From the NCBI RefSeq assembly GCF_058153355.1, contig NZ_CM177019.1: a stretch of DNA of 64,000 nucleotides. The stretch is one strand, 5' to 3'. Position 1 is the stretch's first letter. Every line of letters starts with the position of its first letter. The position numbers and the translations under genes are program-made. Below the pieces are notes generated by a model. That model was not told where the DNA came from. It worked only from the letters and a program-made list of their open reading frames with translations, and made no database searches. Below are positions 21,764 to 60,139 of this stretch, in pieces.

Positions 21764-21787
21764 TTTTTCAGTAAGGAATTCAGGGAA

Positions 21788-22156
21788 TTGAAAATCAGAA
21801 CAGGGATGTGCGCTTTTTTATTTTGCTTAGTGCTTCCTACGCAGGCTACCAGCTTTACCGAATATCTGCCAATGAGTGACAGCGAATACGCGCAAAAGCG
21901 GGCGCTGAAACCTCTCCTGACTATGCCTTATTATACCGAGCAAACCTGGCATTTTAGAAAAGTGGGCGTTGCTGGCGTGACGCTTGAGAAGATGCCAAAT
22001 GAAGAGGATTACTGGCAATTAACTGCTAAAGACCGCGCCGGTAAATCCTGGAAGGTGCCTGTGGGTATGCTGGCAAATATGGCGGGCAAAGGGCAACTCT
22101 ATCGCGCCGATCTGGATCGTAACGGCATTCAGGATCTGGTTACCAAGTGCTGGTAA
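21788..22156 (+). CDS. Hypothetical secreted protein (N-terminal part of a possibly split gene), accessory
   Basis: 122-aa ORF with signal-peptide-like N-terminus MCAFLFCLVLPTQA and a DLDRNGIQDL motif; no K-12 counterpart at this locus. Confidence 0.45.
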   Translation: MKIRTGMCAFLFCLVLPTQATSFTEYLPMSDSEYAQKRALKPLLTMPYYTEQTWHFRKVGVAGVTLEKMPNEEDYWQLTAKDRAGKSWKVPVGMLANMAGKGQLYRADLDRNGIQDLVTKCW

Positions 22157-22187
22157 TGGTCTGGCTCCTTATGCACATTTAATCCTT

Positions 22188-22553
22188 ATGACGTTCACGC
22201 GCGATGGTCGTCCCTGTGTCTTTGAACCCTGGGGATTCTACACCGCAAGCAAAACTGGCGTAGATGATTTGCTGGATTTGCAAGGCAATGGCCACACACA
22301 ATTGCTGGATATGCAGTTTAATTCTGGTTACTGGATAACCAGTCTGTATCAGGTAAAAGACGCCAAATGGCAACGTGTTCACGGCTGGTTTGGCAAGTTA
22401 AGCTATCCCGCGCTCACGCGTTTTACTTATACCCCCAACCGTAAACTCGTCCTCAAACCCATTGCCGGGCGTGACCCGCAAACGGAAGATTTAGCGCTGA
22501 CGCAGCGTTGTTTGATAACAGGGGATGTGCTTGATGGGGTGAATCAGAACTGA
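22188..22553 (+). CDS. Hypothetical protein (possible C-terminal part of the same split gene), accessory
   Basis: 121-aa ORF in a different frame 31 bp after the previous stop; contains a DLLDLQGNGHTQLLD motif. Confidence 0.4.
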   Translation: MTFTRDGRPCVFEPWGFYTASKTGVDDLLDLQGNGHTQLLDMQFNSGYWITSLYQVKDAKWQRVHGWFGKLSYPALTRFTYTPNRKLVLKPIAGRDPQTEDLALTQRCLITGDVLDGVNQN

Positions 22554-22715
22554 CTTTTTGCAGAGTGGGTATGAGGATTTTGGGGGAGAATTATATCGCG
22601 CGCAAGTGTTTACATATTGTGAACTTGGATTTGGTGAGCTATAGTTTCTGAACACATAAGGATAGAACTCGCAGATGTGGCTGTTTACTTACTATAAGGA
22701 AGTTAAAACTTAAAA

Positions 22716-23027
22716 ATGCACATCATTTCGAAAGCGCCATTTGAAGAGTCTGCGCGCAAATATCCTAACGACGCTCTGGCTCTACACTCATTGTATCGGG
22801 TTATTAAGGAAACGGATTTTTCTACGCCAGAAGAAATGCGAACGGCGTTTCCCAACCTCGACAATTTTAAATATCGCAACAAATGGTACGTTCTGGATGT
22901 CGGCGGGAACAATCTTAGGGTTATTGCCTACATAAACTTTGTTAATAAGCGGTTCTTTGTGAAGCACATAACGAATCATGCCGAGTATGACAAACTGACA
23001 CGTTACTACAGAGAGAACAAAGAATGA
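22716..23027 (+). CDS. HigB-like toxin (RelE/ParE superfamily mRNA interferase)
   Basis: 103-aa ORF; similar in length and conserved segments (FPNLDNFKY, VGGNNLRV, H..YD) to E. coli HigB; toxin gene precedes antitoxin with a 4-nt ATGA overlap. Confidence 0.75.
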   Translation: MHIISKAPFEESARKYPNDALALHSLYRVIKETDFSTPEEMRTAFPNLDNFKYRNKWYVLDVGGNNLRVIAYINFVNKRFFVKHITNHAEYDKLTRYYRENKE

Positions 23028-23443
23028 CTGCTAATGCTGCACGCGCTGTTAAAGCAACAAGAGAACTGGTCAATGCAGTCCCCTTTCTGGGAGGCAGTGA
23101 CTCAGAAGATGATTATCGTGAAGCACTGGAACTGGTCGAATATTTGATTGAAGAAGATGACACCAATCCACTTATCGACTTTCTGGCGAGCCGCATTGCA
23201 GAGTATGAAAACAACCACGAAAAGTTTGCAGAGTTCGACAAAGCCGTTGCTGCAATGCCGGTTGGCGTGGCGTTACTTCGCACGTTGATTGATCAACATA
23301 ATCTGACCTATGCGGATTTGAAGAACGAAATCGGCTCTAAATCCCTGGTCAGTCAGATTTTGTCTGGACAAAGATCCCTGACGATATCCCACATTAAGGC
23401 ACTTTCAGCCCGATTTGGCGTTAAGCCGGAATGGTTTCTTTGA
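23024..23443 (+). CDS. HigA-like antitoxin (XRE-family HTH)
   Basis: 139-aa ORF; C-terminal segment IGSKSLVSQILSGQRSLTISHIKALSARFGV matches the HigA HTH region. Confidence 0.75.
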   Translation: MTANAARAVKATRELVNAVPFLGGSDSEDDYREALELVEYLIEEDDTNPLIDFLASRIAEYENNHEKFAEFDKAVAAMPVGVALLRTLIDQHNLTYADLKNEIGSKSLVSQILSGQRSLTISHIKALSARFGVKPEWFL

Positions 23444-23488
23444 TTTTGACTGATGCCAAACGCCAGATTGCCCGATGCGCAACGCTTA

Positions 23489-24718
<1,230 letters not shown>

Positions 24719-24748
24719 CATGCCTGCAATCTGGGAAACCGGGGTAGA

Positions 24749-24779
<31 letters not shown>

Positions 24780-24790
24780 TGTCGCACGAA

Positions 24791-24831
24791 CTATGTAGGC
24801 CGGATAAGGCGTTCACGCCGCATCCGGCACG
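24791..24831. repeat. REP element flanking the IS right end
   Basis: ctatgtaggccggataaggcgttcacgccgcatccggcacg, canonical REP palindrome. Confidence 0.8.
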
Positions 24832-53046: not shown

Positions 53047-53073
53047 TCAGTAAACTATCTTCACAATTAATTG

Positions 53074-53105
53074 AAAAAAGCCAGTTCAAATGAACTGGCT
53101 TAGTT
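53074..53105. terminator. Bidirectional terminator between luxS and emrB
   Basis: aaaaaagccagttcaaatgaactggctt hairpin flanked by A and T runs. Confidence 0.65.
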
Positions 53106-53109
53106 GTAC

Positions 53110-54664: not shown

Positions 54665-55837
54665 TTAGCCAGCGTTAGCTTTTACGATATCGTCGATCAG
54701 TTTATTGACAGGTGCCAGGCTGATTTCACGCGCGGTGCTTACCGCGACCGGTGTGGAACGTACTTTATTTGCCAGTACCTGACCGTCACGGTTAGTGGTA
54801 TTGACGCTCACCAGCGTGGATAAACCGATACGCAGCGGGTACTGCTCCAGCTGTTTCTGGTCCAGTTCAATACGAACAGGCAGACGCTGAACGACTTTGA
54901 TCCAGTTACCGGTGGCGTTTTGCGCCGGAAGCAGCGAGAACGCGCTACCTGTGCCCATATCCAGACCAACCACGTTACCGGTGTATTTCACATCATCGCC
55001 GTAAATATCGGTGGTGATGGTGACCGGCTGACCGATACGCATATTGGCAATCTGCGTCTCTTTAAAGTTGGCATCCACCCACATATTGGTGGCTGGAACG
55101 ACCGCCATCAGCGGCGTCGTTGGGCTAATTTGCGCCCCAGGCTGTACTGCTCGGCGGGAGACATAACCGGTCATCGGACTGACAATACGGGTACGCTCCA
55201 GCGCCAGCCAGGCGTTACGTACTTCGGTGGCAGCCTGTTGCACGGCAGGCTGATCTTCCAGTTTAGTCCCCAGAATCATCGCCTGATTGGCATTGTATTG
55301 TTGAATGGCGACATCCAGTTGCGCCTGGGCACTGGTCACCGCGTCGCGGGCGTGTTGCAGCTCTTCGCGACCAATCAGGTTGGCATTGCCCAGCGGCACA
55401 CGGCGGTTGTAGTCGCTTTGTGCTTTCGCAAGGGCGATTTTCTGCACCTCAATATTCGCCTGCAACTGTTTACTGTTAATCATCAGCTGGTGGGTTTGGC
55501 GCACGCTGGAAGCGAGTGCCGTTTTGGCTTTTTCAAACGCCTGGCGAGCATCTGTCGGGTCGAGAGTGACCAGCACATCGCCTTCTTTTACAAAATCGGT
55601 GTTATCGGCCCAGACTTTCGTCACGCTGCCAGACACCTGAGACATAATTTGAATCTGATTCCCTGCCACATATGCGTCATCGGTTTCTTCGAAATGACGC
55701 AGTACCAAAAACCAATAAATCCCTATCGCTACGGCAATAATTATAAAGAGCAAGGTGAGAAGGAGGAGCAGACGCTTACGTTTGCCGCTCTTCTTTACCG
55801 GTTGCTGCGGGGTTTGAGTCTCCGCATTTGCGCTCAT
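54665..55837 (-). CDS. emrA: Multidrug efflux membrane fusion protein EmrA
   Basis: 390 aa from MSANAETQTPQQPVKKSGKRKR... Confidence 0.95.
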   Translation of the reverse strand: MSANAETQTPQQPVKKSGKRKRLLLLLTLLFIIIAVAIGIYWFLVLRHFEETDDAYVAGNQIQIMSQVSGSVTKVWADNTDFVKEGDVLVTLDPTDARQAFEKAKTALASSVRQTHQLMINSKQLQANIEVQKIALAKAQSDYNRRVPLGNANLIGREELQHARDAVTSAQAQLDVAIQQYNANQAMILGTKLEDQPAVQQAATEVRNAWLALERTRIVSPMTGYVSRRAVQPGAQISPTTPLMAVVPATNMWVDANFKETQIANMRIGQPVTITTDIYGDDVKYTGNVVGLDMGTGSAFSLLPAQNATGNWIKVVQRLPVRIELDQKQLEQYPLRIGLSTLVSVNTTNRDGQVLANKVRSTPVAVSTAREISLAPVNKLIDDIVKANAG

Positions 55838-55963
55838 ATTGTTCTCCACGATCTTCTTAACTCATCGGCTGAGCCGACCTGCTTGCCAAAAAGGCCAGCA
55901 TGTTGCGATGCTGGCCAGTCATTTTTTCTTTTATAAATCTGGATTTTTGAGCGAGATGACGCG

Positions 55964-56494
55964 TTAGCTCATCGCTTCGAGAACCACACCGTCTTGTTCC
56001 ATCTGGTCGAGACGGGAGAGCAATTTGCGGGTGATTTGCTCGAGCTGATCTTTTTCTGTTGTGCTGAGCGCGGACCAGAGTTGATGCAGGCAGTTATGCT
56101 GCGGTGGTAAAACCTCGCGCAAAAACTCGTGACCTTTTTCCGTTAATTGCAGATGCAGGCAGCGGCGATCGTTATCGCTTTCACGACGTTCGATCCAACC
56201 GCGTTTTTCCAGTTCATCGGCAATACGCGTCGCGTTGGTACGGGATGATCCAAGAGCACAACTCAATTCAGAAGGCTGAATACTGTGGTTTTCCTGAGAC
56301 TCCAGCGTAATCAACGCCATAAACAACGTCTCGTTAATCCCCTGAGCCTTCAGCATTTTATTGCGGTTCTCCAGCAGCTTGCTTTGCATGTGCATGCAAA
56401 GACGAGTCAGAAGGATCTCCTGATAAGGAAAATCTTCGTGGCGGCTGGCGCGAAATTTTAGCATTTGTTCAATGGGCGTAAACGAACTATCCAT
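55964..56494 (-). CDS. emrR: MarR-family repressor of emrRAB
   Basis: 176-aa ORF. Confidence 0.93.
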
Positions 56495-56584
56495 TTGGGT
56501 ATGACCTCATTAATTTCAGCCGATATAGTAACGACAGTGACAAATAAAGTAAATGTATTGTTTTAGAAAAATGATTCTTGTGGG

Positions 56585-56920
56585 TTATATAATCGCCATC
56601 ACTTTCCAGGCGAGCCCATAGGCCAGCGCACTAAGCAGTGTTGGGATGATAATGCTGCGTGTTTTATAGAAACTGGCACCCAGTACCGCGAAGCCGACCA
56701 GAGTGGGCACGAAACGGCGTGTATCGTGCATCACTTCTGGTGCGGTAGAGACAACCAGCAGAGCGCATATCGAGGCGATGCCAATGGTGTCGAGCAAAAT
56801 ACCTACCGCGCCACGTTTGGTTGGGCGGGCATTACCCACACGCAGGCGCAGCGGCAAATAGCGGAAGCAATAATTCGCCGCGCCAACCAGTAACCCAAGC
56901 AGCAGAACCTCATAGCTCAT
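56585..56920 (-). CDS. ygaH: L-valine exporter subunit
   Basis: 111-aa membrane ORF. Confidence 0.9.
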
Positions 56921-57647
56921 CGGGCGCTCCTTGCCAGAATGCCTGGATTAACGCAGTGAGGCAGCCACAGACAATGCCTGCCAGAATGGCGACGGGAATA
57001 GAAAATAGCGTTACGCCTGCAAGGGCACCAACTAACGCTGCGGTAACGCAAAGAGATTGTTTGCGCTGGAAAGAGGCGAGCAGGAAACTCATAAAGAGTG
57101 CCGGAAGCATAAAACCTAATGCTGCTTCAACGGCGGGATATCCTTGCAGCAAGCCGCAGCCGGAGAATGCCCCTATTACCGTACCAAATACCCACGATGA
57201 CCATGAACTGAAGGCAATGCCGATCATCCAGTTCTCGCTCCAGCGGCGATTATTGCGTACCAGTTTTGCGGTTGCGGCGGCAAAAACCTCATCCGTCAGG
57301 CCAAACGCCCACAGGGCAGTTTTCGATTTTTGCAGACGCTGAATAATACGGCTACGCAGTGACGGGCCATACAAAACATGGCGAACATCCATTGCCATGA
57401 CGGTCAGTGCAGCAACCCACAAACTACTCCCGGCTGCCAGCATCGCGGTAATGACGAACTGGCTCGCGCCTGCATAAATGATGCAGGAGAAAAAAACGCT
57501 TTCGAGAGGAGAGAATCCCAGACGGGTCGCATTCAGACCGAACGCAAAGGCCACCGGAATATAACTAATAACAATCGGTAAACTGTCTTTGCATCCTTCC
57601 ATGAAGGTCGCCGAACCAGGAGCAGGCTGTGGAGTAGGGCTTTCCAT
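56910..57647 (-). CDS. ygaZ: L-valine exporter subunit
   Basis: 245-aa membrane ORF overlapping ygaH. Confidence 0.9.
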
Positions 57648-57770
57648 AGAGTGTACGCTTAACGATTGTTAATATTATAAATAGACTGAATGAATATCTT
57701 AACCTTATCAGACTGATGGGCTTCTTAACACCCTTATAAGTGTAAAGCCACGAAAACGGTTGCTGATTGC

Positions 57771-58955
57771 TTAAATTGCGGCTTCCTGACGATGAAAACC
57801 TCGCCACCAGACCAGTAAGTTAACCAGGGCAATCGTCGCGCCAGCCAGACAAACGCCAGCCCAACCGCCATGTTGCCAGGCTGAGGCTGAAATTAGCGAA
57901 CCGGCGGCACCGCCAATGAAGTAGCTGGTCATGTAACCTGCGGTCAGGCGATTACGCGCATCAGGGTGTATTCGATAAATTACCGTCTGGTTAGTGATAT
58001 GCACGCCCTGCACGGTGAGATCCAGCACCAGGATGCCGATAATCAAGGCCAGTACGGAAGTGTGACCAAACCAGATCGCCAGCCATGAAAGTAACAGCAG
58101 CAGCAGGCCGAAAGTTGTGGTGAGGTGTGATTTGCCCTTATCGGCAAAACCGCCCGCCGGACGAGCGCCTAACGCTCCGGCAGCTCCCGCGAGTCCAAAC
58201 AGACCAATTACGCCATCGCTGTAATTAAAAGGCGGAGCGGCGAGCAAAAAGGCCATTGAGGTCCAGAGAATGCTGAAGTTGGCAAAGGTCAGGCAGCCCA
58301 GCAACGCGCGGGTGCGCAGAATTTTATCGCTGATAAACATGCTGAAAACGGAACCAAGCAACTGTGGGTAGTTGAGGTGGGTTTCTGATTTCATTTGTGG
58401 CAGACCACGCCATAATGCCAGCGCCATCAGTGCCATTAACACCGAGGCAACCCAAAAGACGGTGCGCCAGCCGCCGAGGTTTGCCAGCAAACCGGCAACG
58501 GTTCGTGCCAGCAAGATCCCCAACAGCAGCCCGCTCATAATGGTGCCGACCACTTTGCCGCGTTTGTCCGGTGAAGCCAGCGTCGCTGCCAGCGGAACCA
58601 GAATTTGTGCCACGACCGAGAATAGACCGGTTAATGCCGTACCGAGGATCATCATCGCCAGCGACTGACTGCTGGCGGTAATCAACATACCGCCCGCTGC
58701 CAGTAAGGTCATCGAGACAATCAGGCGGCGGCGTTCAAACATATCACCGAGGGGAACAAGAAACAGCAGACCTGCGGCATAGCCCAACTGCGCGGCGGTA
58801 ACAATAAAGCCCGCCGAACTGGCGGAAAGGGAAAAGTTACGCGCGATGGTGTCGAGTAATGGCTGGGCGTAATAGTTACTGGCTACCGCCAGACCGGTGG
58901 CGATAGACATCAGCACGATCAGTGCCGGGCTAAGCTCATGATTAGGTTTAGTCAT
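57771..58955 (-). CDS. ygaY: MFS transporter YgaY (intact here)
   Basis: 394-aa uninterrupted 12-TM-type ORF. Confidence 0.85.
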   Translation of the reverse strand: MTKPNHELSPALIVLMSIATGLAVASNYYAQPLLDTIARNFSLSASSAGFIVTAAQLGYAAGLLFLVPLGDMFERRRLIVSMTLLAAGGMLITASSQSLAMMILGTALTGLFSVVAQILVPLAATLASPDKRGKVVGTIMSGLLLGILLARTVAGLLANLGGWRTVFWVASVLMALMALALWRGLPQMKSETHLNYPQLLGSVFSMFISDKILRTRALLGCLTFANFSILWTSMAFLLAAPPFNYSDGVIGLFGLAGAAGALGARPAGGFADKGKSHLTTTFGLLLLLLSWLAIWFGHTSVLALIIGILVLDLTVQGVHITNQTVIYRIHPDARNRLTAGYMTSYFIGGAAGSLISASAWQHGGWAGVCLAGATIALVNLLVWWRGFHRQEAAI

Positions 58956-59067
58956 TATTTTTATTCATCAGGTGATGATTAAGCTGGAAATCAATAATAG
59001 CGGATGTTGATGAATATGGGATGAAAGATAGATTGTTGAAATGTGCGGTGTGGTTTGTAGACATGAT

Positions 59068-59128
59068 AAGACGCGGCCGCGTCGCATCAGGCATTGTGTA
59101 CAGAGCGGCGGATAAGGCGAAAACGCCT
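59068..59128. repeat. REP elements between ygaY and proX
   Basis: gacgcggccgcgtcgcatcaggc and gcggcggataaggcgaaaacgccttatccgccc palindromes. Confidence 0.75.
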
Positions 59129-59146
59129 TATCCGCCCGAATAAAAA

Positions 59147-60139
59147 TTACTTCTGCGCTGCCAGCGCCTCATTCACCCAGCCATCGAACTGCTGCTGGTG
59201 GGCTTTGATCCAACCATCAACGTGGCCCTGAATATCGCCTTCTGAGGCTTTGCCGTCATGCATAATGGCGTTCTGGGCGTTAATATCTGCCACTGGCAAC
59301 TGCATAATGGCAAACAGTTTCGCTGCCGCCGGGTTTTTCTCGGCCCAGGCTTTGTTGGCAACGATATGCATGGTGCTGACCGGGAAGCCATAATTCGCAC
59401 CATTCGGCAGTTTAGTGTCGGCGTTTTTATCGCCCGGCAGTGCGGAGAACGGCACCTGCAACCAGACGACATCTTTGCCCGGCTTCAGTTCGTTACTCAC
59501 CCAGTACGGCGTCCAGGTGTAGTAAAACACCGGCTTACCCTCTTTGTAACGACTGATGGTGTCAGCCATCATCGCTGCGTAGTTCCCCTGATTATGCGTC
59601 ACGGTATTGGTCAGTTCATACGCGGCAAGCTGGTGGTTGATCGCACCTTCGCAGCCCCAGCCTGGGTTACAGCCAGTCAAATCTGCTTTACCGTCGCCGT
59701 TGGTATCGAACAGTTTGGCGATCTTCGGATCTTTCAGTTGCGCGATGTTGGTGATTTTGTACTGGTCGGCGGTTTTCTTATCGATCAGGTAACCCTGTGC
59801 CGCGCCGTTAACGAATACCCCTTCACGATAAAATTTCTTATCGCCACCGGCAGCTTCGTACATGTTGTCATGCAGCGGCGTCCAGTTCACGGCGGTGAAG
59901 GTTGCATCGCCGGAAGCAAGTGAGGTGTAGCCAACGTTGTAATCCACTTCGCTGGGTTTATTGACGGTATAACCTAATTTCTCCAGTGCACGACTGACCA
60001 GCAGCGTCTGGAAGGTTTCTTCAGTGATGGTGCTCTGAACTGGATTAACAGTAATACCTTTGCCCGGCAGATCGGCAGCAAAAGTTTGTGTAGAGATAAG
60101 CGTGGCAAACGCTGTCGCAAAAAGTACGCTATGTCGCAT
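59147..60139 (-). CDS. proX: Glycine betaine/proline ABC transporter periplasmic binding protein
   Basis: 330 aa from [21 protein letters not shown] (signal peptide); upstream extension rejected. Confidence 0.95.

Follow-up and report, generated by a model that had tools for sequence, protein, structure and literature searches.

The ygaY locus and its gene neighbourhood

In the window, by which we mean the whole analysed stretch of 64,000 nucleotides from contig NZ_CM177019.1, ygaY is found on the minus strand as a single uninterrupted open reading frame (57771..58955) of 394 amino acids, beginning with ATG and carrying its stop codon within these coordinates. The preliminary description, which had presented it as an intact 394-aa MFS transporter, was right in coordinates and length as well as in family, as the protein matches Pfam MFS_1 (PF07690) with E = 3.3e-40 and 138.5 bits against a gathering cut-off of 33.4. 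All neighbouring genes are likewise encoded on the minus strand: emrA, emrR/mprA, ygaH and ygaZ flank ygaY at lower coordinates, proX, proW and proV at higher ones, so that the gene order is that of K-12 (proVWX-ygaY-ygaZH-mprA-emrAB) read in reverse. The features referred to throughout the text are the following:

56910..57647, minus strand: ygaZ, the downstream neighbour, an AzlC-family subunit of an L-valine exporter (from the reading frame and K-12 annotation; 99.2% identical to K-12)
57674..57702, minus strand: putative ygaZH promoter TTAAGA-17-TATAAT, in the ygaY-ygaZ intergenic spacer (scan match 10/12)
57771..58955, minus strand: ygaY coding sequence, intact, 394 aa, predicted 12-helix MFS transporter assigned to the TCDB 2.A.1.36 YnfM family (from the reading frame, Pfam, AlphaFold2 and Foldseek)
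58686..58703, minus strand: position of the K-12 lesion (codons 85-90 of the ORF, nt 253-270), undeleted in the window, which has CTGGCAGCGGGCGGTATG
58956..59061, minus strand: AT-rich 5' region of ygaY, with no sigma-70 promoter in a consensus scan and a weak Shine-Dalgarno sequence, AATAAAAATAATG
59062..59137, minus strand: two REP-like GC-rich hairpins in the proX-ygaY spacer, just downstream of the proX stop (59147-59149), as read from the sequence
59147..60139, minus strand: proX, the upstream neighbour, binding protein of the glycine betaine/proline ABC transporter (from the reading frame and K-12 annotation; 993 bp)

The proX reading frame runs on to an upstream GTG, and the annotated start is the methionine of MRHSVLF... 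The open reading frames on the opposite strand inside ygaY (for instance 58372..58668, 98 aa) are unsupported.

Orthology with K-12 ygaY (b2681) is indicated by the position between proX and ygaZ together with high nucleotide identity, amounting to ~96.6% outside a 7-bp gap (1178 bases aligned, 40 of them mismatched), and no second, better counterpart of the window gene was seen elsewhere in K-12. When one best place was taken per genome, the match to the ygaY locus was chromosomal in 5418 of 5426 genomes. Furthermore, the exact window protein occurs on 622 public contigs as "MFS transporter" (UniRef A0A1Q6B704_ECOLX), and a homologue search returned thousands of proteins of the same 394-aa length. 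We are highly confident that the window carries the intact, ancestral orthologue of the K-12 pseudogene ygaY, encoding a 394-aa, 12-helix MFS protein of the YnfM family.

Over 50 kb, the window has 95.4-97.0% identity to K-12. Against the best complete genomes the figure is about 96% (30000-54000), and against strain 2017-02-2CC, from human faeces in Viet Nam, it rises to 98-99%, a pattern that points to a divergent and sparsely sampled E. coli lineage as its source. At 55800-57910, a patch of ~2.1 kb that takes in mprA, ygaH, ygaZ and the final ~140 bp of ygaY reaches 99-100% identity to K-12, against 94-98% in its flanks; divergence changes within the 3' part of ygaY, between 57775 and 57918, and the pattern suggests a recombination mosaic. 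Farther away, the hycI and ascB regions are separated by ~3 kb (21784-24793) for which K-12 has no counterpart and which partially matches the equivalent segment of 2017-02-2CC, where a hypothetical protein gene and a helix-turn-helix protein gene are found. That strain also carries, at the equivalent of the luxS-emrB spacer (53049-53109), a 2.1-kb insert (L011:42043-44156) with a frameshifted AAA-family ATPase gene and an RNA ligase family gene, which is absent from both the window and K-12.

The K-12 lesion and the spread of intact and broken alleles

The preliminary description took the gene to be interrupted in K-12, and pairwise alignment with the K-12 ygaX/ygaY region bears this out: the K-12 copy is neither intact nor full length. 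It is annotated as a 1178-bp 'pseudogene' in MG1655 (b2681) and as 'MFS transporter, frameshifted' in C3026. Global alignment of the window frame with b2681 places, besides the 40 substitutions, 7 gap columns at ORF nt 258-267, and frame 0 of the K-12 gene reaches a stop after 88 codons, with the remainder of the protein continuing in another frame. This 7-bp deletion with its change of frame accounts for the former split of the gene into ygaX and ygaY in K-12 (UniProt P76628; TCDB 2.A.1.36.3). Otherwise the two copies are closely alike: locus and neighbours are the same, and a reconstructed K-12 YgaY differs from the window protein by ~3 residues, whereas the K-12 gene is short of one GCGGCAT unit and the window copy runs uninterrupted. 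The lesion is also reflected in the literature, in which the "crypticity of ygaY ... nine in-frame stop codons" in K-12 was described (PMC10656529) and the Keio ygaY deletion served as a pseudogene control (bioRxiv 10.1101/072470). The preliminary description further proposed a strain difference in transport capacity; of this, the difference in the gene itself stands, while the capacity would be an extrapolation from gene content.

How the lesion arose can be read from intact alleles. In phylogroup A, these have CTGGCGGCATGCGGCATG at the site, which is a perfect tandem of two GCGGCAT units in codons 86-90; K-12 keeps one copy and has lost 7 bp, and the window, reading GCAGCGGGCGGTATG, has an imperfect repeat. 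Apart from the deletion, K-12 shows 0 differences in 1178 bp from the intact phylogroup-A allele LZHX12, and since the two are otherwise identical, the loss has to be recent. Judged from this comparison of alleles, the K-12 lesion is a recent, single slipped-strand deletion, and the window represents the ancestral state.

To follow the deletion through the species, a 97-base query over the K-12 junction and its 104-base undeleted version were compared with complete E. coli genomes (n=5417). The deletion junction was present (match of at least 99%) in 353 of the 5417, all others aligning with the undeleted version. Sixty of these 353 carriers were inspected, and all 60 were K-12 derivatives such as MG1655, C600, J53, DH5alpha, DH1, HMS174, RR1, NCM3722 and similar strains, those without such strain names being laboratory isolates with the genome sizes and coordinates of K-12. 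By this sequence survey, the 7-bp lesion appears essentially restricted to K-12 derivatives. Thus, the odd strain is K-12 and not the window, and an intact gene is the ancestral and usual state.

Being undeleted at the K-12 site, as in 5064 genomes, is not the same as being intact throughout, for which E. coli S115 is an example. Seven non-K-12 alleles (six from E. coli, one from Citrobacter) were fetched regardless of the state of the deletion site, and 7/7 were intact; S115, which was picked as an outlier, is frameshifted. Its allele (NZ_CP158441.1, L012:1094-2259), annotated as frameshifted, has an independent 19-bp deletion of ORF nt 252-270 (window equivalent 58686-58704) that overlaps the site of the 7-bp deletion in K-12. 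The short GC-rich GGC/GCGG run at this site looks like a recurrent spot for small deletions. A different picture was obtained in E. coli PCP06021 (NZ_CM129877.1, H40), where the alignment covers only 23% of the ygaY locus query and the annotation passes from an MFS transporter straight to ygaH, suggesting a larger deletion that took out most of ygaY together with ygaZ.

The DNA allele of the window is itself uncommon, reaching at least 99% identity over the locus in only 3 of 5418 complete genomes. At the protein level, it differs from the common alleles by 4-6 residues, all of them at variable positions.

Family, fold and direction of transport

In TCDB, cited through PMC5417439, E. coli YgaY (P76628) carries the number 2.A.1.36.3 within the Acriflavin-sensitivity (YnfM) family, its function being given as 'Unknown'. 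A BLASTP comparison with K-12 YnfM yields a full-length alignment of the window protein (E 7e-21; 409 columns, 26% identity). By this match and the listing, YgaY is a member of the TCDB 2.A.1.36 YnfM family. The family around YgaY is large, with 1147 clusters (50% identity level) reaching an E of 1e-30 or below, and all 85 aligned full-length relatives also match Pfam MFS_1. An AlphaFold2 model built from these 85 relatives is all-helical (pLDDT 94.7, pTM 0.92), and Foldseek returned as its top matches the 12-helix exporters SotB, MdfA and NorA, with TM-scores of 0.80-0.89 over ~385 residues. Accordingly modelled, YgaY is confidently predicted to adopt the 12-helix MFS fold with two six-helix bundles.

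At a finer level the searches were less specific. None of 24 weak NCBIfam matches came near its cut-off, which leaves no equivalog name or substrate-level family to assign; the best of them, an aromatic acid:H+ symporter subfamily, covered the N-terminal half only and lay far below its cut-off, and the nearest full-length models were PRK03545 ('sugar transporter'), Cmx/CmrA and Bcr/CflA. Searched with a profile, the PDB sequences gave SotB (1e-15), EmrD (2e-14) and YajR (1e-12) at the top, while a single-sequence search of the PDB was less informative than this and the fold search, giving weak matches, mostly to the N-terminal half, with the glucose:H+ symporter GlcP (N-half only) as the best.

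SotB (6KKI-L), MdfA (4ZP0, 6EUQ) and NorA (8TTE), the best structural matches, are DHA1 drug:H+ antiporters. However, YgaY shares only 15-18% sequence identity with them, belongs to TCDB 2.A.1.36 and not 2.A.1.2, and lacks the DHA1 antiporter motif C (G-x-x-x-G-P-x-x-G-G), as helix 5 contains no G-P (GKVVGTIMSGLLLGILLARTVAGLL); the family consensus of this helix, RGxVVGxVMSGLLxGILLART, is likewise without it. The curated DHA1 models (Bcr/CflA, Cmx/CmrA, EmrD) gave at best 48-52 bits against cut-offs of 200-400. Membership in DHA1 (TCDB 2.A.1.2), considered on structural grounds, was rejected for the missing motif and the scores below these cut-offs. At the place of motif A (G-x-x-x-D-R/K-x-G-R-R/K), the loop between helices 2 and 3 reads P-L-G-D71-M-F-E-R75-R-R, in which G70, D71 and R75 are 82-99% conserved in the family and the central R/K and G are replaced. 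Besides D71 and R75 of this loop, conserved polar residues include R151 (helix 5), D272 (in the corresponding loop of the other half), R336, and in helix 10 D312, Q316, N322 and Q323.

The characterised member of the family is YnfM (E. coli b1596; C. glutamicum YnfM), the type member of TCDB 2.A.1.36 and, as YgaY, a 12-helix MFS protein. YnfM exports glutarate, succinate and 2-oxoglutarate in a CCCP-sensitive manner (PMC12622518, PMC7873477). The gene contexts differ in that ynfM adjoins the regulator gene ynfL, whereas ygaY has no adjacent regulator, mprA being three genes away. Around a relative with 57% identity (P0138), there are no conserved neighbours or regulator hinting at a substrate. 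The searchable literature returned no functional or substrate data on intact YgaY, only uses of the K-12 gene as a pseudogene or neutral site, a chromatin study of proVWX and the TCDB listing.

We propose that YgaY would operate by alternating access between its two six-helix bundles, with transport coupled to the proton gradient, for which D312 (helix 10) and R151 (helix 5), both conserved in the family and embedded in the membrane, are candidate coupling residues. It would most probably export a small cytoplasmic metabolite or a xenobiotic; with YnfM as the model, this may be an organic acid, dicarboxylates being only an analogy. The direction of transport cannot be read from the MFS fold, and export is drawn from the exporters among the sequence and fold matches, from the exporter YnfM and from the neighbouring efflux genes, on which grounds we lean towards YgaY being an exporter.

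The converse, that YgaY is a proton symporter taking up a nutrient such as a sugar or an organic acid, aromatic or otherwise, would agree with the absence of motif C, with the aromatic acid:H+ symporter subfamily and GlcP as the best NCBIfam and single-sequence PDB matches, both confined to the N-half and the former far under its cut-off, and with the Pfam family Sugar_tr, which is also touched by 27 of the 85 family members. Yet the matches that extend over the full length of sequence or structure are to the exporters SotB, Cmx/CmrA, Bcr/CflA, EmrD, MdfA and NorA, the characterised family member YnfM exports, and ygaY is placed among the exporter genes ygaZH and emrAB. Uptake is unlikely on this balance, and we retain export as the preferred direction.

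Expression, selection and significance

A simple consensus scan of the 190-bp spacer upstream of ygaY found no sigma-70 consensus promoter, from which silence is not concluded. The two REP-like hairpins 3' of proX, recognised in the sequence, are probably a terminator or insulator of proVWX. In other E. coli the proX-ygaY spacer (58956-59146) varies in length, as the alignments of many strains begin at query base 11 or 99 and some strains (H15, H23, H27, H28) have insertions of ~100 bp. On the other side of the gene, the putative ygaZH promoter has hexamers identical to those of a constitutive RpoD promoter of ygaZH listed by Shimada et al. 2014 (PMC3946193). In K-12, ygaY is subject to H-NS bridging, and StpA limits read-through from proVWX; its transcripts are nonetheless detectable, increase after hyperosmotic shock and increase far more in the absence of StpA (PMC10656529). 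Given this action of H-NS and StpA near the K-12 gene, expression of ygaY may be low or conditional.

These observations could be taken further, to a gene that is intact yet effectively silent, repressed by H-NS/StpA and devoid of a strong promoter of its own, adding no transport under normal conditions and leaving the difference from K-12 phenotypically neutral. Such a view would be in line with the empty promoter scan and the weak Shine-Dalgarno sequence, with H-NS bridging and limited read-through in K-12 (PMC10656529), with the second, independent frameshift in S115, and with the K-12 loss itself, for which no defect is reported and whose locus is in routine use as a neutral site or control. 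Against it stand the transcripts detectable in K-12 and their rise after osmotic shock, and the pattern of substitution. Relative to five further intact alleles, among them those of phylogroup A, B2 and O157:H7, the window has 22-42 synonymous and 4-6 non-synonymous changes, giving dN/dS = 0.03-0.08 at dS 0.07-0.15, a range from which the sixth allele, that of 2017-02-2CC, was left out as it is near-identical (3 substitutions) and its value of 0.72 uninformative. Ratios this low at dS up to 0.15, together with 94% amino-acid identity to Citrobacter at an unchanged length, require that wild strains produce the protein and that selection acts on it.

Conservation extends beyond the species. The 394-aa orthologues of E. 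fergusonii (97-98% identical), E. albertii (96%) and Citrobacter (94%) have kept their length, which also speaks against a silent gene, and in Citrobacter the order nrdEF-proVWX-ygaY-ygaZH-mprA-emrAB is unchanged. Across wild E. coli, Shigella and these relatives (e.g. WP_039021929.1, WP_000165680.1), intact YgaY proteins of 394 aa are 94-99% identical to that of the window with synteny kept. The combination of low dN/dS with conserved length and identity is the signature of a protein made and selected, and we regard YgaY, on the evidence of these substitutions, as being under strong purifying selection. A silent gene is, on these grounds, improbable.

We also considered that the window allele, being ~3.5% off most E. 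coli, might be degenerating, and rejected this, as its differences are nearly all synonymous and the few replacements fall at variable positions. For instance, the residues that set the window protein apart, L278 (also found in Citrobacter) and I394 (the last residue), both occupy variable columns of the 85-sequence alignment. The idea that the long frame is a chance one, or an assembly artefact masking a real frameshift, deserves practically no credence and is already refuted by the MFS_1 match, by the exact protein on public contigs and by the same 1185-bp frame in six other independently sequenced E. coli alleles and in Citrobacter.

A bolder proposal would make YgaY an active proton-coupled exporter of a specific metabolite, either an organic acid such as a dicarboxylate or a compound tied to the flanking genes for osmotic stress and amino acid efflux, which was missed through its loss in K-12, with codons 85-90 as a recurrent deletion hotspot (7 bp in K-12, 19 bp in S115) that switches the gene off. 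This proposal is rather doubtful.

The essentials are already on record: ygaY is a pseudogene in the K-12 reference annotation, thousands of genomes have the intact gene annotated, and the exact protein is public. What is added here is small, namely the probable origin of the K-12 lesion by slippage, its near-restriction to K-12 derivatives, another independent deletion in the same place, and a confident model of the fold. YgaY emerges as an orphan transporter out of reach in K-12 and the collections built on it, the Keio ygaY deletion serving there as a neutral control, and its deorphanisation calls for a wild-type allele such as that of the window.
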